Assembly: GCF_000179635.2 (NCBI RefSeq) | Contig: NC_014833.1 | Coordinates: 150,001-182,000 of the forward strand | Length of the DNA stretch: 32,000 nt | Direction of reading: 5' to 3' | Source: Ruminococcus albus 7 = DSM 20455 | GTDB lineage: Bacteria; Bacillota; Clostridia; Oscillospirales; Ruminococcaceae | Notes under the pieces: generated by a model | Database searches by the model: none | Seen by the model: the letters and a program-made list of their open reading frames with translations, nothing else | What the model was told of the DNA's origin: nothing | In this document: positions 11,395-23,773 of the stretch, piece after piece | How positions within the stretch are numbered: position 1 is the first letter of the stretch | Layout of the letters: every line of letters begins with the position of its first letter | Program-made: the position numbers and the translations under genes

Positions 11395-11421
11395 TGATTA
11401 ATCTTGCTTGGGAGTGAAATA

Positions 11422-12132
11422 ATGAAGATCGCAGTATGTGATGACGAAAAGATGTTTCGTAATGAAGTTATCATTCTGCTTAATAAATATGCAGAAGAGA
11501 ATAATATTATCCTTGATATAACCGAATTTGATGACGGCGGGAAGGTCGTGGCTGCCAAGACGGTTTTTGATATGATATTTCTCGATCATCAGATGAATGA
11601 ACTGAACGGACTGGATACTATAAAACGTATACGTGAAAAAAATATAGATACGAAAGTTGTTTTTGTAAGCAGTTATTCAGAGATAGTATTTGACAGCATG
11701 AAATACAATGCATTCAGGTTCATAGTAAAGCCTGTTACAAAGGATAAGCTTTATGAGGCTATGGATGCTGCACTTGAAATCAGCAGCAGCGAGCGCAAGC
11801 TGATAGTAAAGGATGAAGAGTATAATGAGAGCATAGTGGTGTATGAAAAGGATGTTATATACGCGCAGGCGGACAATGTATATACATACATAATAACAGC
11901 GGAAGGCTCGTTCAGGTATCCTTACAATCTTTCAACGCTTGAAGAGGAGCTGGATTCGGGGGGGTTTTTCAGGACGAACAGGTCTTATATAGTAAATCTT
12001 GAGCATATAAATTCCTACGATAAGACGGGTATCACCTTATCGAACGGACATAAAGCTGTGATATCAAGATCAAAGTACAAGGATTTCAACAATTGTTATC
12101 TCAATTATTTAAAGAGATCTTCATCAAGATGA
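11422..12132 (+). CDS. LytTR-family response regulator (AgrA/ComE type)
   Basis: Track ORF is 11404..12132. The preferred start is ATG 11422 (MKIAVCDDE...) after GGGAG. The receiver domain includes MIFLDHQM, and the C-terminal LytTR domain includes FFRTNRSYIVNLEHI. Confidence 0.9.
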   Translation: MKIAVCDDEKMFRNEVIILLNKYAEENNIILDITEFDDGGKVVAAKTVFDMIFLDHQMNELNGLDTIKRIREKNIDTKVVFVSSYSEIVFDSMKYNAFRFIVKPVTKDKLYEAMDAALEISSSERKLIVKDEEYNESIVVYEKDVIYAQADNVYTYIITAEGSFRYPYNLSTLEEELDSGGFFRTNRSYIVNLEHINSYDKTGITLSNGHKAVISRSKYKDFNNCYLNYLKRSSSR

Positions 12133-12190: not shown

Positions 12191-13516
12191 ATGGAAATCG
12201 TATTAAAAAATGTTAGGTTTATATTATTTATATCCGTGTATATTTTATATTTTGTGAATATACATAAAAGTGTTAAGTTGATTTCGGATGATAATAAGTT
12301 CAGAAAAATCAGCTATGCTGTCGCGGGCTTACATATTATTTTGAAAATATTATTAGAAACTGTTCCTTTTTCAAAACAAGTAGGAGATGTTATATGGCGG
12401 ATGGGAGTACCATTGCTTTGTCTGTCAGTATTCCTTTCACACAAACAGCATCTATTAAAAACTGTTTATGTAACATTACTCTATTCATCTCTTGAAGCGA
12501 GTCTGGGAACAGTGATAAATATACTAATTGATGTCATTGTTCCGATAAAATACAGGGATTATAGTGGAGTAGCATTATACTTTTTATTAAATCTGGCATA
12601 TTATTTTATATTGACAAGATATCTGACGCAAAAGGCGGAAGATTTGAGGCTGAGTTTGGAATTTATTAATAGAAAAACATATATATTCATTCTTATATAT
12701 GCAAGGATACTTTCAAAACTAATATCAGTTACCAGAGCTGGAGAAAATATGAAATTTACAAGTGTGAAGCTGTTGTTCTATGTCAAATTATATATTATAC
12801 CTATCTGTATAATTTCAATGTTTATCATAATCCTTTTGATATCAAACAGTATGTCCAAATTCTACTATAAAAGGTCAGCGGAATTGCTGGACAAGCAGCT
12901 GGATATGCAGGCTAAGTATTACGAAAAAATCGATGAGATGACTACGGATATCAGGAAATTCAGGCACGATTATAAAAATCACATGCATTGTCTGAAGTCG
13001 CTGCTGGGCAGCAAGAAAATAGATGATGCGCTGGAGTATCTGGATTCCATATCCGCTAATCCAACTATGAACAAAACATCATTCAAAAGCGGCAATACCA
13101 TAGCCGATGCGATACTAAACGATAAGGCTGCAATAGCAGCACATGAGAATTTCAGGCTGAATTTCTCGTGAGTGATCTCGGAAAAAGTATCGGCATTCGA
13201 TATATGCACCATTCTTTCAAATGCACTGGATAATTCCATAGAAGCCTGTCGAAGGCTGAAAAGTGCAGAGGATAGGTATATAGACGTAAACTGCGTGCTT
13301 AAAAATGATATGCAGATGATATGTATATCAAATCCATCGGATACTGATGATCCGGATCTTAAAACTTCAAAGGATAATAAAAATGAGCATGGCTTTGGTC
13401 TTTATAATATAAAGAAGACAGTTGATTCACTGGATGGAACAGTGAATATCTCACAGACCTCGCCTGTATTCGTCCTGGATGTAATGTTCAGGATAAAAAT
13501 GCCTGAAACGGCGTGA
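12191..13516 (+). pseudogene. AgrC/HPK10-type sensor histidine kinase interrupted by an in-frame TGA
   Basis: Track ORFs 12191..13171 and 13172..13516 are in the same frame, separated only by TGA at 13169-13171. The N-terminal part is a polytopic membrane sensor. The H-box is FRHDYKNHMHCL, the N-box SNALDNSIEA and the G-box HGFGLYNIKK. The stop falls between the H-box and the N-box. Confidence 0.8.
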
Positions 13517-13626: not shown

Positions 13627-13655
13627 TTGTTTTAACATGGCTTATACGCTATACT
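13627..13655 (+). promoter_or_regulatory. Candidate promoter of the maturase/precursor operon
   Basis: TTGTTT (13627-13632), 17-nt spacer, TATACT (13650-13655). The -35 box is weak, which is compatible with activator dependence. Confidence 0.35.
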
Positions 13656-13688
13656 ATGAGTGTACCAAGACGAAGGGAGGTCAGAGAG

Positions 13689-13721
13689 ATGGATGAATAC
13701 TACGGCTGGAAATGGCATTGA
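13689..13721 (+). CDS. 10-codon upstream sORF MDEYYGWKWH (function unknown)
   Basis: AAGGGAGG (13673-13680) lies 8 nt before ATG 13689, and the stop TGA is at 13719-13721. The sORF sits in the leader of the rSAM operon. Confidence 0.3.
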   Translation: MDEYYGWKWH

Positions 13722-13776
13722 TGCTCAGTGAAATGAACTTGAATAAATTAATAAATAATATGTGGGGTTTTTCAAC

Positions 13777-15033
13777 ATGAGGAAATTTACAAAGAATCTG
13801 CTGTTCCTGCAGAATAAGGAGCAGGTGATAGTCGGCAACAAATGCGAATGTACTTTCCTGAAAATGAGCACAGAGTGCTACGATATACTGAACGGCTTTG
13901 TGAAGAGAGGTATAGGAAAGCATGAGTATGAAAAAATTTTTGAAGATAAAGAAGATAAGGAGTACTTCAGCGAGCTTCATGACAAGCTGGTTGAGAAAAA
14001 GATACTTGTTGATGTAAATGACAAGGAGCTCCTTACAGATTTCGATATACAGTGGGAAGTAACAAATCAGTGCAATCTGCACTGCAAGCACTGCATAGCA
14101 GATGCAGTTACTACCAAGACGCTGATAGCTGACAGAGATGAGATATATGCCATAGCCGATAAGATACTCGGCGTTAAGCCAAGGCTGATAACTGTCACTG
14201 GCGGTGAGCCTATGGTACTGCCGTTCTTCTTTGAACTCAGCGAGTACCTGAGAAAGAATACCCGCGGTGAGATGAACCTGATGACCAATGGCACTTACAT
14301 TACCGAAGAAAATGCAGCTAAGATAAAGGAACTTTATGATGCTGTATTCATAAGTGTTGACGGCTCGGATGAAAAGTCCTGCAGCGAGATAAGAGGAGCA
14401 GGGGTGTTTGGAAAGGTAATGGATGCCATCAAGTATCTGAAGGCGGCAGGAGTTAAGAATATATCCCTTTCCTTTGTACTTACAGCACAGAACAGAGAGC
14501 ATGAGAAGCCTTTCCTGAAGCTGTGCAGGGAGCTGGAAGTCAGCCCCATGGTGAGAACGTTTTCGCCCGTAGGAAGAGGCAAGGATCACAAGGACTGGTA
14601 TATCCAGGATGAATCGGTGGAAGACAATGATCCTGTTGATCCCGAGTTTGTAAAGAAGACAAAAGAGAACCAGCCTTACATCGAGTTTGGTGCCTGCGGC
14701 GGACGCTACGGTTCCTTTACGGTAAATGCAAAAGGAAATATGTTCCTGTGCGCACCCTATGAATGTTCCGAGAAACCTATCGGAAATATTCTCGAGGTTG
14801 ACGATATAAACAAGTATTTTTACGAAGAGGAATTCAGGAAAACAGAAAGCTATCTGAACTTTGAAAAGAAAATGCCTGAGAATTTCAAGAGATGTCAGGA
14901 GTGCAGTGTAAAGTACTTCTGCTGGCACTGTCCTTTCCTGTTCGAGCAGTCACTGAAAAACGAGAAGTCGTTTGATAACTACTGCAAGATCAGAAAAAAA
15001 GAGATCGGCTTTTCGCTTTGGGGTGAGATCTGA
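13777..15033 (+). CDS. Radical SAM/SPASM maturase with N-terminal RRE-like (PqqD-like) domain
   Basis: Track ORF is 13762..15033 with a GTG start; ATG 13777 (MRKFTKN...) is preferred. A pre-domain of about 95 aa precedes the CxxxCxxC motif (NQCNLHCKHC). The C-terminus is Cys-rich and SPASM-like (GACGG...LCAPYEC...CQECSVKYFCWHC). Confidence 0.9.
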   Translation: MRKFTKNLLFLQNKEQVIVGNKCECTFLKMSTECYDILNGFVKRGIGKHEYEKIFEDKEDKEYFSELHDKLVEKKILVDVNDKELLTDFDIQWEVTNQCNLHCKHCIADAVTTKTLIADRDEIYAIADKILGVKPRLITVTGGEPMVLPFFFELSEYLRKNTRGEMNLMTNGTYITEENAAKIKELYDAVFISVDGSDEKSCSEIRGAGVFGKVMDAIKYLKAAGVKNISLSFVLTAQNREHEKPFLKLCRELEVSPMVRTFSPVGRGKDHKDWYIQDESVEDNDPVDPEFVKKTKENQPYIEFGACGGRYGSFTVNAKGNMFLCAPYECSEKPIGNILEVDDINKYFYEEEFRKTESYLNFEKKMPENFKRCQECSVKYFCWHCPFLFEQSLKNEKSFDNYCKIRKKEIGFSLWGEI

Positions 15034-16037
15034 TGCACGTTGTATTTTGGACTACGAATGATTGCAACCTGAACTGCAGCTACTGCTACAACAGGATGAG
15101 CAATAATATAAAGAAAGAATATATGACCAGAGAGGTCGCAGATGCAGCGATAGATATGCTGACCAAGCTTGACTGCTGGAAAACTGCCGATGAGATCGCA
15201 GTACAGTTCCACGGCGGTGAGCCTCTCATGAATTGCGATATAATAGAGTATATCATGGAGCGTTTTGAAGCTCTGGTGCCTGCATCAAAGCTGTACTACG
15301 GAATGACTACCAACGGTACGCTCTATGATGACAGAAGAAAAAAGATAATCGATAAAATAAACGAACTATCGCTGAGCCTTGACGGCAAGGCGGAGATACA
15401 TGACCTGAACAGAAAGTTCGTAAGCGGCAAGGGTTCGTTTGATATCGTTATGGATACAGCCAGGGATATCAGCAAGAGAAAAGATGTCCGGCTGAGGATG
15501 ACTGTTACAAGAGATACTATCGGTGATCTTTGCGATACGGTCTGCTATTTCCTGGAGGAGGGTTTCAGACGGATAATACCCGTACTGGATATGTATGACT
15601 CTCACTGGAAGGACGAGGACGAGCCGATAATATTTGAGCAGTTCCGCAAGATAAAAGAATATATAGAAGAAAAAGACTATGGAGATGCCGTTATCTCGTA
15701 CGTTACCGAATCGGAATTTGTCCGCAAGGCAAAATGTACGGGCGGCGTGGAAAGTTTCCACTTCCTGCCTGACGGCAGCATCTATCCGTGTTCGTTGACA
15801 GTAGGTGACAGTTACTGGCTGCTGGGAAATGTGCTGGACACAGGGCTTGACAAAGCCAAGGTGGATGAGCTCCAGATGATAAACAACAAGGACACATCAA
15901 GCTGTACCGGCTGTGAGATGTATCACTACTGTGCAAGCTCAAGATGTAAACTTATAAATAAAAAGATAACAGGCGATTATTATACTGCCAGCAGTATAGC
16001 CTGTCTATGCAGCAGACTTGAATACGAGTTTGCTTAA
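15033..16037 (+). CDS. Second radical SAM/SPASM maturase (no RRE domain)
   Basis: The start overlaps the upstream stop (TGATG). The CxxxCxxC motif begins at residue 11 (NDCNLNCSYC). The C-terminal Cys cluster is KCTGG...YPCS...SSCTGCEMYHYCASSRC. Confidence 0.9.
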   Translation: MHVVFWTTNDCNLNCSYCYNRMSNNIKKEYMTREVADAAIDMLTKLDCWKTADEIAVQFHGGEPLMNCDIIEYIMERFEALVPASKLYYGMTTNGTLYDDRRKKIIDKINELSLSLDGKAEIHDLNRKFVSGKGSFDIVMDTARDISKRKDVRLRMTVTRDTIGDLCDTVCYFLEEGFRRIIPVLDMYDSHWKDEDEPIIFEQFRKIKEYIEEKDYGDAVISYVTESEFVRKAKCTGGVESFHFLPDGSIYPCSLTVGDSYWLLGNVLDTGLDKAKVDELQMINNKDTSSCTGCEMYHYCASSRCKLINKKITGDYYTASSIACLCSRLEYEFA

Positions 16038-16085: not shown

Positions 16086-16262
16086 ATGGAAATCAAGAAA
16101 ATCGACAATAAGGTAAAGCTCAATAACCAGAATGTAAAGGCTGAGAGAGACGAGTATGCTTGTCACCACGACTGCATCGAGTACTACTATTCCGGAAGCA
16201 CAGGCGCAAAGGGTTGCCGCAGAGGAAGCACTATTTCCGCTAAGACTACCCGCGCTTGGTAA
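16086..16262 (+). CDS. RiPP precursor A1 (58 aa)
   Basis: Not in the ORF track. AGGAGG lies 8 nt upstream. Sequence: MEIKKIDNKVKLNNQNVKAERDEYACHHDCIEYYYSGSTGAKGCRRGSTISAKTTRAW. Confidence 0.85.
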   Translation: MEIKKIDNKVKLNNQNVKAERDEYACHHDCIEYYYSGSTGAKGCRRGSTISAKTTRAW

Positions 16263-16348
16263 TCTTGGATCTTTTGGATAAAATACAAAAATCATAAGAA
16301 AACTATACGCACTAATACAATCTACATTTAATATAGGAGGATTTTACT

Positions 16349-16525
16349 ATGGAAATCAAGAAGATCAATGACAAGGTTAAGCTGAACGAAGAGAACGTAA
16401 AGGCAGAGAGAGACGAGTACGCTTGCCACCACGACTGCATCGAGTACTACTATACCGGAAGCACAGGCGCAAAGGGCTGCCGCAGAGGAAGCACTATTTC
16501 CGCTAAGACTACCCGCGCTTGGTAA
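16349..16525 (+). CDS. RiPP precursor A2 (58 aa)
   Basis: Not in the ORF track. AGGAGG RBS present. Sequence: MEIKKINDKVKLNEENVKAERDEYACHHDCIEYYYTGSTGAKGCRRGSTISAKTTRAW. Confidence 0.85.
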   Translation: MEIKKINDKVKLNEENVKAERDEYACHHDCIEYYYTGSTGAKGCRRGSTISAKTTRAW

Positions 16526-16611
16526 TCTTGGATCTTTTGGATAAAATACAAAAATCATAAGAAAACTATACGCACTAATACAATCTACATTTAATATAGG
16601 AGGATTTTACT

Positions 16612-16788
16612 ATGGAAATCAAGAAGATCAATGACAAGGTTAAGCTGAACGAAGAGAACGTAAAGGCAGAGAGAGACGAGTACGCTTGCCACCACGACTG
16701 CATCGAGTACTACTATTCCGGAAGCACAGGCGCAAAGGGCTGCTCCAGAAGAAGCACTATAACTGCTAAGACAACCCGCGCTTGGTAA
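16612..16788 (+). CDS. RiPP precursor A3 (58 aa)
   Basis: Not in the ORF track. AGGAGG RBS present. Sequence: MEIKKINDKVKLNEENVKAERDEYACHHDCIEYYYSGSTGAKGCSRRSTITAKTTRAW. Confidence 0.85.
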   Translation: MEIKKINDKVKLNEENVKAERDEYACHHDCIEYYYSGSTGAKGCSRRSTITAKTTRAW

Positions 16789-16919
16789 TCTTAGATCTTT
16801 GAATGCAATAATCATAAGAATACTATTCTAGCAATTCATAATAATACTATACGCACCAATACAATTTACTACTAATAACAAACAAAGTAATAATTTATAA
16901 AAAACAGGAGGATTTTATC

Positions 16920-17096
16920 ATGGAAATCAAAAAGATCAATGACAAGATTAAGCTGAACGAAGAGAATGTAAAGGCAGAGAGAGACGAGTACGCTTGCCAC
17001 CACGACTGCATCGAGTACTACTATACCGGTAGCACAGGTGCAAAGGGCTGCCGCAGAGGAAGCACTATTTCCGCTAAGACAACCCGTGCTTGGTAA
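16920..17096 (+). CDS. RiPP precursor A4 (58 aa)
   Basis: Not in the ORF track. AGGAGG RBS present. Sequence: MEIKKINDKIKLNEENVKAERDEYACHHDCIEYYYTGSTGAKGCRRGSTISAKTTRAW. The core is identical to A2. Confidence 0.85.
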   Translation: MEIKKINDKIKLNEENVKAERDEYACHHDCIEYYYTGSTGAKGCRRGSTISAKTTRAW

Positions 17097-17307: not shown

Positions 17308-17478
17308 ATGAAGGTACAGAAAATAACAGACAAAATCAAGCTCAGTGAGGAAAATGTAAAGGCTGAAGGCGGCGGCTGCCTTAAAGACTGTGCAGAGATA
17401 CAGTATACAGGCAAAAACTCAGCTAAGGGCTGCAGAAGGACCACAGTATATACAGCAAAGTACACTAATATGTGGTAA
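17308..17478 (+). CDS. RiPP precursor B1 (56 aa, divergent core)
   Basis: Not in the ORF track. AAGGAG lies 8 nt upstream. Sequence: MKVQKITDKIKLSEENVKAEGGGCLKDCAEIQYTGKNSAKGCRRTTVYTAKYTNMW. Confidence 0.8.
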   Translation: MKVQKITDKIKLSEENVKAEGGGCLKDCAEIQYTGKNSAKGCRRTTVYTAKYTNMW

Positions 17479-17506
17479 TGCAAAGCGTTGAAACGGAGAA
17501 AAAATC

Positions 17507-17686
17507 ATGGTGATCAAGAAGATCAAAGACAAGATAAAGCTTAGAGAAACAGTCAAGGCTGAAAGACTGGACCTTCAGGCTGACTTTATGCAGGACTGTG
17601 CTGAACAGACTTATGCGGGATATACCGCCAGAACAGGATGCAGAAGAAGAATGAATTACAGCGCAAAACTGTATTCAAGATTGTAA
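17507..17686 (+). CDS. RiPP precursor B2 (59 aa, divergent core)
   Basis: Not in the ORF track. GGAG lies 8 nt upstream. Sequence: MVIKKIKDKIKLRETVKAERLDLQADFMQDCAEQTYAGYTARTGCRRRMNYSAKLYSRL. Confidence 0.75.
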   Translation: MVIKKIKDKIKLRETVKAERLDLQADFMQDCAEQTYAGYTARTGCRRRMNYSAKLYSRL

Positions 17687-17729
17687 GCTTAAAGCAATTA
17701 TCTTATATTTCGACAGGAGGAAAAACAGC

Positions 17730-17897
17730 ATGAACATAAAGAAGCTTCTGGACAAAGTATTTGTAAAAGAGAATGTCAAAGCAGAAGGTATCTTTTCGGA
17801 TTTCAACTACGATTATGTCGGTTTTGATCCATGCAATAAGACCAACAAGATCAATCATAGGGAAAATATCACAGAGAAAAACAGAAAAAAGATTTGA
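17730..17897 (+). CDS. Leader-bearing peptide B3 (55 aa, single Cys, Lys-rich tail)
   Basis: Not in the ORF track. AGGAGG lies 9 nt upstream. Sequence: MNIKKLLDKVFVKENVKAEGIFSDFNYDYVGFDPCNKTNKINHRENITEKNRKKI. It shares the leader motif but not the core motif. Confidence 0.65.
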   Translation: MNIKKLLDKVFVKENVKAEGIFSDFNYDYVGFDPCNKTNKINHRENITEKNRKKI

Positions 17898-17929
17898 TTT
17901 GAGATTTTATAAGGATCCGGTGTATTGAT

Positions 17930-18919
17930 ATGAGAAAAGTTAAAGTTGCGATCATTGACAGCGGGATCAACTACAACATAGTTAATGACGATGTCAGAAA
18001 CTGCATAAAGACCGGATATTTAGTTCATGATGATGAAGCCAATACTGTTCAGGAGGTATCACCTTCCGAATTGTGTGATTTCAACGGGCATGGTACGGTA
18101 TGCGCTTCAATAGTAAACAGGATAGCGCCGGAAACGGAGATAATCCCTGTTTGTATATTGGGTAAGAACGGCAGATGCACTCCGGGCAAACTGGTAGCTG
18201 CACTGGAACTGGCCAAACGGCTCGATGTCCAGATCATCAATATGAGTCTCAGCTCAAATGATCTATTTATACGGCATAAACTGAAAAAGCTGACAAAGGA
18301 ACTTGAAGCGCAGGGAAAGATCTGTGTAGCTTCAAAGTCCAATGACAGACACATCAGTTTTCCGGCAGATTTTAAAAACGTTATAGGTGTTGTAGGCAGG
18401 ATCGACGTTTTTAATGACGGTTTTGAATACGACAGTCAGAAGAAGATACAGGTAACAGCCAGCGGAGCTACAGAGCTTATGGAATTCCATATGCCCGGTG
18501 CGAACTTCTTCAGAGGCAACAGCAGGGCGGCTGCGATATTCTCAGGCGTTCTTGCGGATGCTTACGCAAAAGGAAAGTTCAGCACAAAGGCAGAGGCGGA
18601 AGAGTATATGAGGTCTGAGTCCTGGGTGAGCGAAAAGTTTTACAGGTCTCCGGAGGATGATGAGAGCGATGAGAAGATCGTGAACAGGATCCTCACAAGA
18701 GTAAGTAAAATGATATCCGATGAGAGGATACGTGTTAAGCTCGCAGATGATCTTGAGCTGGTGTATACCAATTCTACTATCTATGATTATTACAAGATAA
18801 TCTATATGCTCGAAAATGAGTTTTCGTGCAGGATATTCGGCAAAGTCCCTGTATACAGGGTATATTTTCAGAAGATAAATTATCTCGGCAAACTGGTAAA
18901 GGAAGCACTCAATGAATAA
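17930..18919 (+). CDS. S8 (subtilisin-like) serine peptidase, no signal peptide; probable leader peptidase
   Basis: Catalytic blocks VAIIDSGIN (Asp), NGHGTVCAS (His), INMSLS (oxyanion Asn) and GNSRAAAIFSG (Ser). The N-terminus starts directly with the Asp block. A C-terminal extension of about 100 aa belongs to no family I recognise. Confidence 0.85.
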   Translation: MRKVKVAIIDSGINYNIVNDDVRNCIKTGYLVHDDEANTVQEVSPSELCDFNGHGTVCASIVNRIAPETEIIPVCILGKNGRCTPGKLVAALELAKRLDVQIINMSLSSNDLFIRHKLKKLTKELEAQGKICVASKSNDRHISFPADFKNVIGVVGRIDVFNDGFEYDSQKKIQVTASGATELMEFHMPGANFFRGNSRAAAIFSGVLADAYAKGKFSTKAEAEEYMRSESWVSEKFYRSPEDDESDEKIVNRILTRVSKMISDERIRVKLADDLELVYTNSTIYDYYKIIYMLENEFSCRIFGKVPVYRVYFQKINYLGKLVKEALNE

Positions 18920-20531
18920 TGAAATAAGGAAACTGCTCAGGATATGGAAACTTGACAGAATGAAGAAAGGTGTTTTCTTTACCCTGATGCTGATATCGGT
19001 GTTCTTGTCGATAGCCGTGCCAATGGTATTCGTTGACTTTGTAGATGTGGTCACGAAAGCGGCATCGATGAGTTCGCTGGTAAGATTGATAACAATATAT
19101 TTAGTACTTAACATTTCACAGATGTTTGTGGAGTTCGCGTTTGATTATTACTCATCCGTAAAGGAATTCGAGTTCGCACAGCATCTGAAATTTACAGCGC
19201 TGGACAGACTTTTCATGAAGGACGGAAGGTTCTTCGCCAATGAAAAGACGGGCGACCTTATGACGGTGGTAAATGATGATGCAGCAAAGCTGGCATCATT
19301 CGTATACAAAGCATACAAGGTGATCGTTTCACTGGTCCAGGCGATCGGCATAATGGGTGTCATGTTCTACTATGATGTGAAACTCACGCTGCTGCTGATC
19401 GTTATGATACCTATAACTCTGGCGGCTCAACAGAAGTTCGGAGATAAACTCAGGTATCTGGCGCTTGAGAACAGAAGAGATTACGGAGAGCAGAATGCTC
19501 TCACAGAGGAGTTCATATCAAATGCACCTGCGATGATAACATACGGTTTCCGCAGGAGCTTTCTCAACAAGTATGAACTTGCATCAGATGTGTTGAAAAG
19601 AAGCTTTAAAAAGCTCACACTGACAAATGGTTTTTCAAATCAGGCTATAGATATGATATCTACCATAAGCCTGATAGCGATAACTGCATTCGGCGGTTAT
19701 CAGGTATTTCAGAAGCAGATCTCAATGGGTGTAATGATAATATTCCTGCAGTACTGCACAAGGTTTATCGCACCGTTTGAGAACCTGGTATTCATGAAAG
19801 TAAGCTTTAATATGGTCATTCCTTCTCTTGACCACGTAGATGAAGTGCTGGGCGGAGATACTTGCGCAGACACTTCGGCAGGCAAGCAGATAGATGAGAT
19901 CGACAATATAAAGCTTGAAAATCTTACATTCGGGTACACCCGCGGAAAAAACATTCTCAACGGGCTGGATCTGGATTTTGAGAAGAACAAAAAATATTTG
20001 ATTTGCGGAAAAAGCGGTGCAGGCAAAACTACCATATTCAATCTGATCCTCGGATTGTGGCGGGCAACGTCGGGCAATATCTATATAAACGACGATGAGA
20101 TCGGCAGCATAGATCTTGAATCATTCAGGGACAGGATCTCACTGGTCTCGCAGAAAACGTTCTTCCTGCATGATACGATATATAATAATCTGACCAATGG
20201 AAGGGATATACCGGAAGAAAAGGTATGGGAAGCTCTGCGGTGTGTTGAACTTGACGATTTTGTCAGGGGCATGGAAAATGGTTTGGATACCATACTGGGT
20301 GATGATGGTATGACAATGTCCGGAGGACAGAGGCAGAGACTGGCAATAGCACGTTCAATGCTGAAACGATCGGATGTGGTAATATTCGATGAGCCGACTT
20401 CGGCACTTGATAAGAATACAGAGAAGATAATTGCGCGTTCCATAATGGGTATAAAGGATAAGATAATAATCATCGTATCCCACAGCAATTGTTTTTCGGA
20501 TCAGGTCGATCAGATATACAAGATCGGATAA
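18912..20531 (+). CDS. ABC exporter, fused permease-ATPase (no C39 peptidase domain)
   Basis: 539 aa. The N-terminal half is a 6-TM domain. Walker A is GKSGAGKTT, the signature MSGGQRQR and Walker B VVIFDEPTSALD. The start overlaps the peptidase gene by 8 nt. Confidence 0.9.
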   Translation: MNNEIRKLLRIWKLDRMKKGVFFTLMLISVFLSIAVPMVFVDFVDVVTKAASMSSLVRLITIYLVLNISQMFVEFAFDYYSSVKEFEFAQHLKFTALDRLFMKDGRFFANEKTGDLMTVVNDDAAKLASFVYKAYKVIVSLVQAIGIMGVMFYYDVKLTLLLIVMIPITLAAQQKFGDKLRYLALENRRDYGEQNALTEEFISNAPAMITYGFRRSFLNKYELASDVLKRSFKKLTLTNGFSNQAIDMISTISLIAITAFGGYQVFQKQISMGVMIIFLQYCTRFIAPFENLVFMKVSFNMVIPSLDHVDEVLGGDTCADTSAGKQIDEIDNIKLENLTFGYTRGKNILNGLDLDFEKNKKYLICGKSGAGKTTIFNLILGLWRATSGNIYINDDEIGSIDLESFRDRISLVSQKTFFLHDTIYNNLTNGRDIPEEKVWEALRCVELDDFVRGMENGLDTILGDDGMTMSGGQRQRLAIARSMLKRSDVVIFDEPTSALDKNTEKIIARSIMGIKDKIIIIVSHSNCFSDQVDQIYKIG

Positions 20532-20596: not shown

Positions 20597-20650
20597 ATAT
20601 AATGTTTGCCATGACATGATGAAAATATATGATAAGGAACGGTGATAGTA

Positions 20651-21310
20651 ATGGTAATTCAAACTCACGATCTGTGTAAGTATTACGGTGATGAAAGCAA
20701 TATGGTGAAGGCTCTTGACAAGGTGAACCTGAGCGTTGACAAGGGTGAACTGATAGGCATAATCGGCAAGTCGGGCAGCGGTAAGTCAACGCTGCTGAAT
20801 ATGCTGGGTGCGCTCGATCATCCCACGGGAGGAAGCATCATTATCGGCGGAGAGGATATCTCCAAGATGAACGATGAGCAGCTGACAAAGATGCGTCGTT
20901 CAAAGATCGGCTTCATTTTCCAGAACTACAATCTTATACCCGTACTGAATGTATACGAGAACATAGTTCTGCCTATACAGCTTGACGGAAAGAAGCCCAA
21001 CAATAAGTATATCGATACTATACTTGATGCACTGGAGATCTCACACAAGAAAAATTCTCTGCCTTCCTCCATGTCCGGCGGACAGCAGCAGAGAGTTGCC
21101 ATAGCAAGAGCTCTGGCAAACAAGCCCGAGATAGTTCTGGCTGATGAGCCTACGGGAAATCTCGATGAAGCTATGGGCGCAGAGGTAGTTGATATGCTCA
21201 AATTCATGAATAAGGAGTTTGACCAGACTATCATTGTAGTAACACACGATCAGGAAGTTGCATCACAGATGAACAGAGTGATTAGAGTAGTTGATGGGAG
21301 AGTGCAGTAA
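20651..21310 (+). CDS. ABC transporter ATP-binding protein (MacB/LolD/BceA-like)
   Basis: Track ORF is 20642..21310 with a GTG start; ATG 20651 is preferred. Walker A is GKSGSGKST, the signature MSGGQQQRVAIAR, Walker B IVLADEPTGNLD and the H-loop VVTHD. Confidence 0.9.
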   Translation: MVIQTHDLCKYYGDESNMVKALDKVNLSVDKGELIGIIGKSGSGKSTLLNMLGALDHPTGGSIIIGGEDISKMNDEQLTKMRRSKIGFIFQNYNLIPVLNVYENIVLPIQLDGKKPNNKYIDTILDALEISHKKNSLPSSMSGGQQQRVAIARALANKPEIVLADEPTGNLDEAMGAEVVDMLKFMNKEFDQTIIVVTHDQEVASQMNRVIRVVDGRVQ

Positions 21311-23773
21311 ATGATCAGAAAACTCGCGTTCAGGTCACTTATGGCAGAAAAGTTCAGATGTGTCTGTACTGTTATCGCCATGATACTGACTGCTCTGCTG
21401 TTTTCAACGCTGTTTACTACGGCGGCAGGGCTAAACAATGCCAATACCTATTATGAATTCAAAAAGCTGGGAACCACTGCCCATGTTATAGTAAAGGACT
21501 GGGACAAGGGCTATGGCAAAGAATTTGAAGCTATCAGGGGTCACGGACTTGTAAAAAAAGCAGGTTACCGCAGATTTTTGGGATATGCAGTAAACAGCGG
21601 TATCAAATACAATGTTGAAGTCAGCTACATGGGCGCAGATGAGGCAGAGCTTGACTACTACACACCCACAAGCGGAAAACTCCCCGTTGAAGCAAACGAG
21701 ATAGCTGTCGATACGACTACTCTTGCTGCACTTGGCGTGGAGAAGAAGGTAGGCACACCCGTCAGCATCGACCTTGATGTAAGCGGCAAGACCGTTACCG
21801 AGGAATTCGTGCTTTCGGGCTGGTTCGAGATAAACAAGGCTTATTCTGTAAAGATAGGTCAGATAATAACCTCCGAAAAATACAGCGATATCTGGGACAG
21901 CAAGTTTGAAACCGACACCGTGAACGGAACGAGCGATGTATCAATTCTGCTGAGTGATGGCTATGATATCGAAGGTGAAACAGAGCAGATTTTCAATGAT
22001 GTTGGTCTTGCATATTCTCAGGATATCATATCTGTGAATCCCGGTTATAATGTCAGCAGTGAAACGATGTCAAGCGAAACAATGGTTACCCTGATAGTAG
22101 GTATACTCGTTATCGTACTTATCGGTTATCTTATCATCAACAACATTTTCTATATCTCGGCAAGAAAAGATGCAAAGCAGTTCGGCAGACTGAAGACTAT
22201 CGGTATGTCAAACAAACATCTGGCAGCCTTTGTAAGGACTCAGGCATTTATAATGCTTGCTGTCGCAGTTCCCCTTGGTATAGTAGGCGGATATTTTATG
22301 GGCAAACTTATACTGCCTGCGATACTGCGCCAGACTGCCTATGATTCTGTCGCTGATGATACAGTCATATCAGGCGGAGTTATCGCCCTGATACTTGCAG
22401 CAGCAGCGCTGTTCGTTGTGATAACTACACTGGTAAGTATAAACGGACCTATAAGAATGATAAAGAAGCTTTCGCCTATCGAATCGACAAGGATAGAGCT
22501 CAAGGGCTATAAGAGCACAAGAAAATCAAGCGACGGCAGCAAGACCCACAAATTTGCAAAATATAACATCCTGCGCAACAAGAAGAGCCTTGCGATGCTG
22601 CTCGTAAGCATATCACTTCCCGTACTGCTGGTAATAGTTTCATACGATGCACTCAACAGCTTTGATATGGATAAGTACCTTTCGACTATACTCGCATCTG
22701 ATTACACTGTAGCATCATCGGATTATTACAAGAATGACTATATCGACAATGAAAACAATGTAAAGACACTTGATGCATCGGTAGTTGAAGAGATAAAAAA
22801 CTGCGGTTTTGTAGAAGAAGGTTCGATAGTATACGGTGATATGGCTAATGAATATGCAAGTGTAAAGGAGATTCAGATCCCGGAGGGCGATGTGTATACA
22901 CTTGACCTTTATGGTTCAGAAGAATTTACAATTGATAAGTCGCTTATCATCGAGGACAATATCGACATGGCAAAATTCAAGGACGGTACAGGTATCGTTG
23001 AGGGCTGCTGGCTGACATCCGAGGGAGAGATCTACCCCGGTACAAGTCAATTCAACCAGGGCGACACTGTTACTATAACAGGTGCAGACGGAAAAGAGCA
23101 TACCTATACAGTCTTAGGTCACATGAATGTTGCTCTTGGTGCCAAAAAGACAGGTATATCAAAAGGCGGCATCACCTGCGAGCTTTATATGAATACTGCG
23201 CAGTATGAGCAGGTAACAGGCAATCAGAACATAATGTCCTATGAATTCAACGTAAAGAACGGCATGGAAAAGGAAGCTGAAAAATACATCAAGGGCATGA
23301 CAGAGGCTGATAGCTCAATAAATTATCAGTCTAAATATTCTCTTGCCGCTGATTTTGCATCAATGAAGCTTCTGGTAAAACTGATATGCACTCTGCTGTG
23401 CGTGGTGCTTACATTTATCGCTGTAATGAATCTTATCAACGTATTTGTATCAAGTATAATGGTAAGAGAAAAGGAGATTGCGACACTGAAGAGCATCGGC
23501 ATGACGAGAGGTCAGCTGAGAAAGATGCTGTTCTGGGAAATATTCTACTACAACGGCACAGCGTTTATAATAGCAGCTGTACTTTCGCTGGTACTGTCGC
23601 CAACGGTTTTCAAAAGCGTTTTCAACGAATTCCCGTTCCTGACCTTCCGTATGAACTGGATGTCATACCCTGCGATAATAGTAGTTATAATGTTTGTAGG
23701 TATAATGACTGTTATATGTGTTGAGAACAGGATATCTAAAATGAACATCCCCGAAGAATTAAAGACTGCGTAA
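21311..23773 (+). CDS. FtsX-family ABC permease with two FtsX modules (BceB/MacB-like); candidate self-immunity
   Basis: 820 aa. The start immediately follows the ATPase stop. Two TM clusters each carry the FtsX signature (...ARKDAKQFGRLKTIGMSNKHL... and ...VREKEIATLKSIGMTRGQLRKML...), separated by large soluble loops. Confidence 0.85.
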   Translation: MIRKLAFRSLMAEKFRCVCTVIAMILTALLFSTLFTTAAGLNNANTYYEFKKLGTTAHVIVKDWDKGYGKEFEAIRGHGLVKKAGYRRFLGYAVNSGIKYNVEVSYMGADEAELDYYTPTSGKLPVEANEIAVDTTTLAALGVEKKVGTPVSIDLDVSGKTVTEEFVLSGWFEINKAYSVKIGQIITSEKYSDIWDSKFETDTVNGTSDVSILLSDGYDIEGETEQIFNDVGLAYSQDIISVNPGYNVSSETMSSETMVTLIVGILVIVLIGYLIINNIFYISARKDAKQFGRLKTIGMSNKHLAAFVRTQAFIMLAVAVPLGIVGGYFMGKLILPAILRQTAYDSVADDTVISGGVIALILAAAALFVVITTLVSINGPIRMIKKLSPIESTRIELKGYKSTRKSSDGSKTHKFAKYNILRNKKSLAMLLVSISLPVLLVIVSYDALNSFDMDKYLSTILASDYTVASSDYYKNDYIDNENNVKTLDASVVEEIKNCGFVEEGSIVYGDMANEYASVKEIQIPEGDVYTLDLYGSEEFTIDKSLIIEDNIDMAKFKDGTGIVEGCWLTSEGEIYPGTSQFNQGDTVTITGADGKEHTYTVLGHMNVALGAKKTGISKGGITCELYMNTAQYEQVTGNQNIMSYEFNVKNGMEKEAEKYIKGMTEADSSINYQSKYSLAADFASMKLLVKLICTLLCVVLTFIAVMNLINVFVSSIMVREKEIATLKSIGMTRGQLRKMLFWEIFYYNGTAFIIAAVLSLVLSPTVFKSVFNEFPFLTFRMNWMSYPAIIVVIMFVGIMTVICVENRISKMNIPEELKTA

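Follow-up and report, generated by a model that had tools for sequence, protein, structure and literature searches.

B3, a conserved cysteine-independent peptide in a radical SAM peptide cluster of Ruminococcus albus 7: a possible secreted companion product

In this study, we analyzed B3, the last of seven small peptide genes in a radical S-adenosylmethionine (rSAM) peptide cluster of Ruminococcus albus 7 = DSM 20455. The cluster lies in a stretch of 32,000 nucleotides (nt) of contig NC_014833.1 (positions 150,001 to 182,000 of the forward strand; hereafter the window). Its peptide array consists of four tandem A-type precursor genes (A1-A4) followed by B1, B2 and B3, which stands directly upstream of an S8 peptidase gene. 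Comparison of homologous loci indicates that B3 is a real, functional and conserved peptide class of the biosynthetic cassette, and one that is independent of cysteine. It may be a secreted companion product that uses the shared leader box, the S8 peptidase and the exporter of the cluster, a reading to which we give a probability of about 0.45. The initial annotation had offered three possible roles for B3: a second product class, a pseudo-substrate, or the signal sensed by the AgrC-type kinase of the locus. The first of these is now the best supported, given the fixed single copy of B3 in the biosynthetic cassette, the purifying selection acting on it and an invariant head motif of its own. 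The B3 gene and its parts are located as follows:

17730..17897, + strand: B3, leader-bearing peptide gene of 55 amino acids (aa) (open reading frame, ORF; AGGAGG 8 nt upstream)
17730-17786, + strand: B3 leader, aa 1-19
17787-17831, + strand: invariant acidic/aromatic head, aa 20-34
17832-17894, + strand: Lys/Arg-rich tail, aa 35-55

Occurrence of B3 in homologous clusters

Most homologous loci were collected with queries that did not contain B3. The second rSAM enzyme of the cluster (rSAM2), searched against relatives, gave complete clusters in four genomes (G022, G005, G025 and G021), and an S8 alignment searched against metagenome contigs gave four further loci (L058-L061). G061 and G017 were obtained by searching the genus with a profile of B3, so that 11 loci representing 8 distinct lineages were available, 9 of which had been recovered with B3-free queries. 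The enzymes of the 11 loci were 61-100% identical to those of the window. The initial annotation had suggested that the conservation of B3 should be examined in such clusters, and a B3-type gene proved to be present and intact in all of them (11 of 11), each time as the last peptide gene and about 32 nt before the S8 gene.

The number of A/B1/B2 genes ranged from 1 to 6 among these loci, with 1 to 4 A-type copies and with B1 absent, single or double; the smallest clusters consisted of one A type and one B3 type. Both peptide types, that is, at least one A-type gene and one B3 gene, were found together in one operon in 10 of the 11 loci, as would be expected for the partners of a two-peptide bacteriocin. 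The exception was G017, where a repeat element interrupts the locus at B1 and the end of the contig truncates it. In this genome, B2, B3 and the S8, exporter and FtsX genes are intact on L047 (G017:C80), downstream of the repeat element that cuts B1, and the assembly (93% complete) contains neither A types nor orthologous rSAM genes. Such an arrangement would be compatible with an rSAM-independent function of B3, and it could also be the result of a recent disruption. It should be noted that the G017 contigs C77 (which carries a second locus, L033) and C80 (L047) both end in mobile-element DNA.

The cluster family was identified only in a subset of rumen Ruminococcus, namely 7 of 39 species of the genus; none of the roughly 360 further genomes sampled from the family contained it, and a search of 1.84 billion representative proteins revealed about five clusters. 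The most divergent B3 relative (P0008), a singleton from a 909-nt contig that was outside the search profile, also carried the B3 head motif (E 8.9e-07 against the 1.84 billion proteins). No description of the cluster or its peptides was found in the literature searched, and the cluster represents an undescribed rSAM peptide family.

Two more distant clusters were observed within the same genomes. L033 (G017:C77) represents another type of rSAM cluster; its enzymes are 30-35% identical, and it has a single 56-aa C-x-x-D-C precursor, two membrane proteins and no B3-like gene. L032 (G022:C5:233500-246500) is a distant paralogous cluster with enzymes 33-37% identical, a 77-aa C-x-x-D-C precursor and a 363-aa S8-like protein; no kinase/regulator pair was present within 13 kb of it. 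Both clusters have the two rSAM enzymes and a single C-x-x-D-C precursor without B3, and thus the second rSAM enzyme is not there for the sake of B3.

Sequence conservation and architecture of B3

The residues N15, V16, K17, E19, G20, F22, S23, D24 and N26, which span the end of the leader and the first seven core residues, were invariant in all B3 variants, and the stretch N-V-K-x-E-G-x-F-S-D-x-N was retained down to clusters whose enzymes are 61-65% identical. Among seven orthologues, the ratio of the proportions of nonsynonymous and synonymous differences (pN/pS, Nei-Gojobori) was 0.11 at pS 0.35 for the whole reading frame, and by segment it rose from 0.05 in the leader and 0.07 in the head to 0.18 in the tail (pS 0.26-0.42). 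Neither the Cys pattern nor the G-C-R-R box of the related peptides is present in B3, as might be expected of a decaying paralogue that has lost its function. However, an intact frame in 11 of 11 loci, the low pN/pS of the whole frame and a B3-specific motif that is invariant even between lineages whose enzymes are 61-65% identical leave this explanation hardly credible, and we regard it as effectively refuted by the conservation data.

All 12 distinct B3 sequences have the same architecture: a core of 35-38 residues, whose first 15 residues have a net charge of -3 to -7 and contain 3-5 aromatic residues, followed by a tail of 20-23 residues with a charge of +5 to +11. The position of Cys was not conserved; it was found at position 35 in the albus group and at position 24 in G021, and was absent from L060, L061, P0006 and P0008. 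A conserved donor Cys in the core, as a thioether substrate should have, was present in the A, B1 and B2 types (C30 and C44 invariant) and was not found in B3. Because no Cys is conserved, the alignments indicate that B3, as a class, is not and cannot be a thioether substrate.

The leaders of B3 and the A type have the N-V-K-A-E box in common and agree at 12 of 19 positions; this box is the sole leader element found in all seven peptides. The N-terminal part of the leader has drifted: between the window and L060, 7 of 20 positions were identical in B3 and 15 of 20 in the A-type leader, and the N-V-K-x-E-G box remained fixed. This hints that B3 may rely on a reader of the N-V-K-x-E-G box, most simply the peptidase or the exporter, to a greater degree than on recognition of the whole leader. 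The invariant F-S-D-x-N immediately behind the leader might be either a site of modification or a surface for binding. Structural models (AlphaFold2) were of low confidence for both B3 (predicted local distance difference test, pLDDT, 58.7) and the S8 peptidase (pLDDT 56.3), and matches of the peptides in the ESM Atlas were sub-threshold only (0.79).

Relationship between B3 and the other precursors

The ORFs of B1, B2 and B3 are intact, and each is preceded by a Shine-Dalgarno site at a distance of 6-9 nt. All seven peptides form a single family that is confined to this locus within the genome (E 1e-26 to 1e-37), and none of them matched a precursor family of NCBIfam or Pfam, even at E 10. 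D29, C30 and C44 were invariant among the 15 aligned A/B1/B2 sequences.

The alignment agreed with the initial description of the individual peptides. B1 keeps three Cys (C-x3-C and G-C-R-R); B2 has lost the first Cys and has F in that column, with D-C and G-C-R-R still present; B3 has kept the leader in front of a different core, carries a single Cys, lacks the G-C-R-R box and ends in a basic tail. That description had also arranged the three peptides in a graded divergence, and identity to A1 does fall (48% for B1, 46% for B2 and 29% for B3). As a statement about decay it did not hold, however, because the constraint on B2 and B3 is as strong as that on the A type. For the cores, pN/pS was 0.16 in the A type, 0.63 in B1 and 0.12 in B2. 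Five other loci have a B2 that is 91-98% identical, with F or Y in place of the first Cys, and the B2 of G021 keeps Cys in that column. On the other hand, B1 was 59-70% identical among close species with enzyme identities of 93-98%; G005 has two copies of it, and G025 and L060/L061 have neither B1 nor B2. Judging from the comparison of core pN/pS, B1 is a diversifying, fast-evolving paralogue, whereas B2 and B3 are stable, specialised ones.

The origin of B3 could be traced by a profile-profile alignment of A/B1/B2 with B3, which was gapless through the leader and about 13 core positions (probability 92.6%). In this alignment, the F/W/C column of B3 corresponds to the first Cys of the A type, and the B3 D corresponds to the invariant Asp; moreover, the B3 of G021 retains Cys at the first-Cys column in a C-x-x-D arrangement. 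The colinear alignment and the Cys of G021 together indicate that B3 is a derived A-type precursor whose C-terminal half has been replaced by a basic tail. The core of B3 had initially been considered non-homologous, which remains appropriate for its basic tail half but not for the first ~13 positions, which still align with the A type.

Possible role of B3

According to the favored reading, an A-type precursor would have given rise to a separate cysteine-independent class that was fixed in the biosynthetic cassette. From the shared N-V-K-A-E box, we infer that the S8 peptidase would cut B3 as well and that the ABC exporter of the cluster would send it out. This would yield a linear peptide of about 36 residues that has the head G-(I/F)-F-S-D-(F/W/C)-N, an acidic and aromatic first half and a Lys/Arg-rich second half, and this peptide might act as a companion or second component to the thioether-bridged A/B1/B2 peptides. 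Leader cleavage, export and the companion role are all predicted steps of this scheme.

Several observations weigh against a secreted companion. First, the tail of B3 is very hydrophilic and not amphipathic, unlike membrane-active partner peptides. Second, the invariant seven residues after the leader could equally mark a site of enzyme recognition or modification, or the binding of an intracellular partner. Third, a single-copy B3 beside amplified A types fits a regulator as well as a stoichiometric partner. Finally, all loci come from one genus, which is a phylogenetically narrow sample.

Some of these observations would also be explained if B3 were an intracellular accessory peptide or pseudo-substrate, which would bind the maturation machinery (the rSAM complex, the S8 peptidase or the exporter) via its leader box and head and thereby tune the processing of the precursors. 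B3 is always present as a single copy directly upstream of the S8 gene, its Cys is dispensable, and its hydrophilic tail does not resemble an antimicrobial peptide; in addition, the drift of the N-terminal leader around a fixed N-V-K-x-E-G box and head suggests a different mode of recognition. However, the tail is still under constraint (pN/pS 0.18), distant clusters with the same enzyme set manage without B3, and no precedent for a trans-acting leader mimic in rSAM peptide clusters was found in the literature searched; to our knowledge, none is known. We consider an accessory peptide or pseudo-substrate unlikely.

It is also conceivable, with a somewhat lower probability, that the head of B3 is the site of a non-thioether rSAM modification, for example an epimerisation or a crosslink from an aromatic residue to a beta-carbon, as in three-residue cyclophanes, so that one enzyme pair would turn paralogous precursors into two chemically different product classes. 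In a variant of this proposal, B3 would be a species-wide "public" signal beside a hypervariable "private" peptide that is encoded by a mini-ORF of the cluster (see below). If the head is modified in this way, B3 would be a type of component new to rSAM peptide clusters, namely a "charge-dipole" peptide without cysteine.

Organization of the cluster

All genes of the cluster are co-directional and follow the order regulator, kinase, terminator and promoter, mini-ORF, two rSAM/SPASM enzymes, seven peptide genes, S8 peptidase, ABC exporter and ATPase/FtsX pair. Apart from B3, its features are:

11404..12132, + strand: LytTR response regulator (Pfam Response_reg and LytTR; start probably ATG 11422, orthologues match from residue 6)
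12191..13516, + strand: AgrC-like histidine kinase (in-frame TGA at 13169-13171; hypervariable sensor about 12214-12860)
13689..13721, + strand: Trp-rich mini-ORF of ten codons (downstream of a conserved regulated promoter; part of the kinase cassette)
13762..15033, + strand: rSAM/SPASM enzyme 1 with an N-terminal extension of ~95 aa (start probably ATG 13777, orthologues begin M-R-K-F-T-K)
15033..16037, + strand: rSAM/SPASM enzyme 2, PapB-like, without the N-terminal extension (NCBIfam PapB family, E 4.2e-52)
16086..17096, + strand: A1-A4, four tandem A-type precursors of 58 aa, C-x-x-D-C ... G-C-R-R (ORFs and alignment)
17308..17478, + strand: B1, three-Cys variant of 56 aa (ORF and alignment)
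17507..17686, + strand: B2, two-Cys A-type variant of 59 aa with F at the first Cys column (ORF and alignment)
17930..18919, + strand: S8 subtilase without signal peptide or propeptide, likely the leader peptidase (Pfam Peptidase_S8, E 3.7e-16)
18912..20531, + strand: ABC exporter with a membrane domain and an ATPase, without a C39 peptidase domain (Pfam ABC_membrane and ABC_tran)
20642..23773, + strand: ABC ATPase and double-FtsX permease, likely a self-protection module (Pfam ABC_tran and FtsX; syntenic in all loci)

Judging from the starts of orthologues, the listed TTG (11404) and GTG (13762) starts of the regulator and of rSAM enzyme 1 (rSAM1) are probably too far upstream. The proteins of the cluster showed distant similarity to known families. 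rSAM2 scored 177 bits against the NCBIfam PapB family, well short of the cut-off of 340; the best matches of rSAM1 were MftC and StsB at about E 1e-26, far below the family cut-offs; the S8 peptidase matched the NCBIfam QhpE-like family under its cut-off (E 1.4e-28); and the RumMC family was among the weak NCBIfam matches for the cluster. The exporter was 60-100% identical across all homologous loci.

The B3 stop codon and the S8 gene start are separated by 32 nt, and no terminator was found within the array between the peptide genes and the S8 gene. In this interval, a 12-nt element with a GGATCC palindrome (17907-17918) was invariant 9-12 nt before the S8 ATG in 8 loci (the window and 7 others); it is kept even where proteins are only 65% identical and may be more than a ribosome site. 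An overlapping +1-frame ORF (17773-17928) was dismissed as a gene owing to its weak ribosome site and its truncation in L030. The constant 32-nt gap, the invariant 12-nt element and the Lys/Arg-rich B3 C-terminus close to the stop codon raise the question of whether B3 might be a cis-acting upstream ORF, whose translation, or stalling on whose polybasic tail, would set the translation of the S8 peptidase and the exporter. Nevertheless, prediction of RNA structure between B3 and the S8 gene gave zero conserved pairs, the most conserved part of B3 is its head and not the C-terminal end where arrest motifs lie, and a product-like leader would have no role in such a mechanism, so that this function of B3 seems very improbable.

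Kinase, mini-ORF and the signal question

The presence of a LytTR/AgrC-like pair in the cluster raised the possibility that B3 is its induction peptide, which would carry the shared leader, leave the cell through the cluster exporter, be sensed by the kinase and switch on the operon. B3 has the profile of such a peptide in that it has a product-type leader, is present in a single copy, is cationic and needs no modification. At the genome level, the orthologous regulator and B3 were present in the same 7 of the 39 species of the genus; the B2-B3-S8-exporter segment is intact in G017, whose assembly has no A types or orthologous rSAM genes; and some loop motifs of the sensor are conserved and might recognize a ligand that is itself conserved. 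A side observation is that the orthologous regulator of G021 (L068, G021:C7:54666-55376; 86% identical) lies on another contig than the kinase and the cluster and contains one internal TAA.

The evolution of the sensor provides a different picture. Between loci, kinase residues 1-230 were 49-72% identical, in contrast with 87-96% for the catalytic half, 85-99% for the regulator and 86-100% for the enzymes. Among species with such divergent sensors, B3 was 87-96% identical and its head was identical. The most striking case is the metagenome locus L058, whose proteins are 96-100% identical to those of the window (100% for B3, rSAM2 and S8), whereas its kinase sensor is 50-65% identical (~50% over residues 1-230). 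The two sequences differ in only two sharply bounded divergent blocks, the sensor (about 12214-12860) and 13653-13790, which contains the mini-ORF and a spacer; the stretch between the blocks is about 5% diverged, compared with about 0-1% outside. Most simply, the two blocks probably represent one replaced tract of about 1.6 kb, from the kinase start to the mini-ORF end, and as L058 is a metagenome contig, a chimeric assembly is possible.

The mini-ORF was found in all 10 loci that cover the region, with the same strong Shine-Dalgarno site behind the same highly conserved promoter. Its peptide is Trp-rich, has 9-12 residues and is different in every pair of lineages. No significant correlation could be observed between sensor identity and mini-ORF identity (Mantel r 0.11, p 0.41 on 7 loci); the pattern thus appears to be co-localised hypervariability and not graded covariation. 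No comparable mini-ORF was present in the short flanks examined near more distant kinase/regulator paralogues (about 50% identical regulator). The cassette of regulator, kinase, promoter and mini-ORF also precedes L033, the B3-less cluster of G017 (a genome that does carry B3 elsewhere, on L047). This occurrence indicates that B3 goes with the product genes and the mini-ORF with the regulatory cassette. On this basis, the mini-ORF peptide is a better candidate than B3 for the signal of the kinase, possibly a leaderless one.

Taken together, B3 has a leader of the product type, but it is neither adjacent to nor co-inherited with the kinase (it lies 4.2 kb away, at the far end of the precursor array), and it does not co-vary with the sensor. 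The initial proposal that B3 is the peptide sensed by the AgrC-type kinase is therefore disfavored, and we consider it rather improbable in view of the invariant B3 head beside hypervariable sensors, the identical B3 proteins of the window and L058 (a possibly chimeric contig) with about 50% identical sensors, the kinase cassette in cis with a B3-less cluster and the hypervariable mini-ORF within that cassette.

The absence of an AgrB/AgrD pair, which had been noted before, holds for the window. B3 does not resemble AgrD, as the locus has no AgrB and B3 has no conserved Cys for a thiolactone or lactone ring; in the albus group the tail after the Cys has 20 residues and is basic. The only AgrB of the genome (C1:1764818-1765345) has its own kinase and regulator. 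It belongs to a complete agr-like module 1.6 Mb away (1764-1767 kb), a classical AgrB system that consists of a LytTR regulator, a GHKL kinase, AgrB (E 4e-40) and a 49-aa ORF.

In addition, the kinase gene of the window contains a TGA at codon 327 (13169-13171), before the ATPase domain, where 8 other loci including L058 encode Gly (GGA/GGC/GGT). It is either a strain-specific nonsense mutation or a sequencing error, and unless the latter is true, the regulatory system may be off in this strain.

Implications and comparison with known systems

The peptide of this cluster that is never lost is the one least like a classical substrate. Because B3 is never lost, it should be included when these peptides are produced or assayed; screening by Cys pattern would miss it. 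The search for the kinase signal shifts from B3 to the hypervariable mini-ORF. As the kinase of the sequenced strain appears to be broken, this may be the wrong strain for expression studies.

The PapB-like rSAM/SPASM enzyme and the QhpE-like S8 peptidase are reminiscent of ranthipeptide and QhpC-type systems (PapA-PapB, which makes freyrasin, and QhpC-QhpD-QhpE). In the A/B1/B2 cores, Cys residues stand beside or close to Asp/Glu, and PapB is known to link such residue pairs (PMC9413430). In contrast with these systems, the present cluster has two rSAM enzymes whose scores are far below the family cut-offs, and its B3 has no conserved Cys.

With regard to the induction peptides PlnA, ComC/CSP (competence-stimulating peptide) and BlpC, the likeness consists of a small, cationic B3 with a product-type leader and a LytTR/AgrC-like pair in the cluster. 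CSP has an aromatic/acidic head and a basic tail, which B3 recalls. Genes of the PlnA/ComC/BlpC type are located directly beside the kinase gene and co-vary with its sensor, whereas 4.2 kb separate B3 from the kinase and its variation does not follow that of the sensor; furthermore, the B3 leader is not of the double-glycine type and the exporter lacks a C39 domain.

Thuricin CD (Trn-alpha/Trn-beta with TrnC/TrnD) also combines two peptide types with two rSAM enzymes, and the minimal cluster observed here has one A and one B3 peptide. The thuricin CD enzymes are described as acting together (PMC12093266). However, both thuricin CD peptides are Cys-bridged sactipeptides, whereas B3 is Cys-independent, and the B3-less clusters found here keep both enzymes, so that no one-enzyme-per-peptide logic applies.

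Finally, ruminococcin C (RumC1-5) comprises tandem precursor paralogues with rSAM maturases, a peptidase and a transporter in a gut Ruminococcus-type organism, and the cluster described here has the same set of components in a Ruminococcus-type organism of the gut or rumen. All RumC paralogues keep the bridging Cys pattern. In the R. albus cluster, by contrast, one paralogue class, B3, has left the Cys pattern and yet is the most constantly retained.

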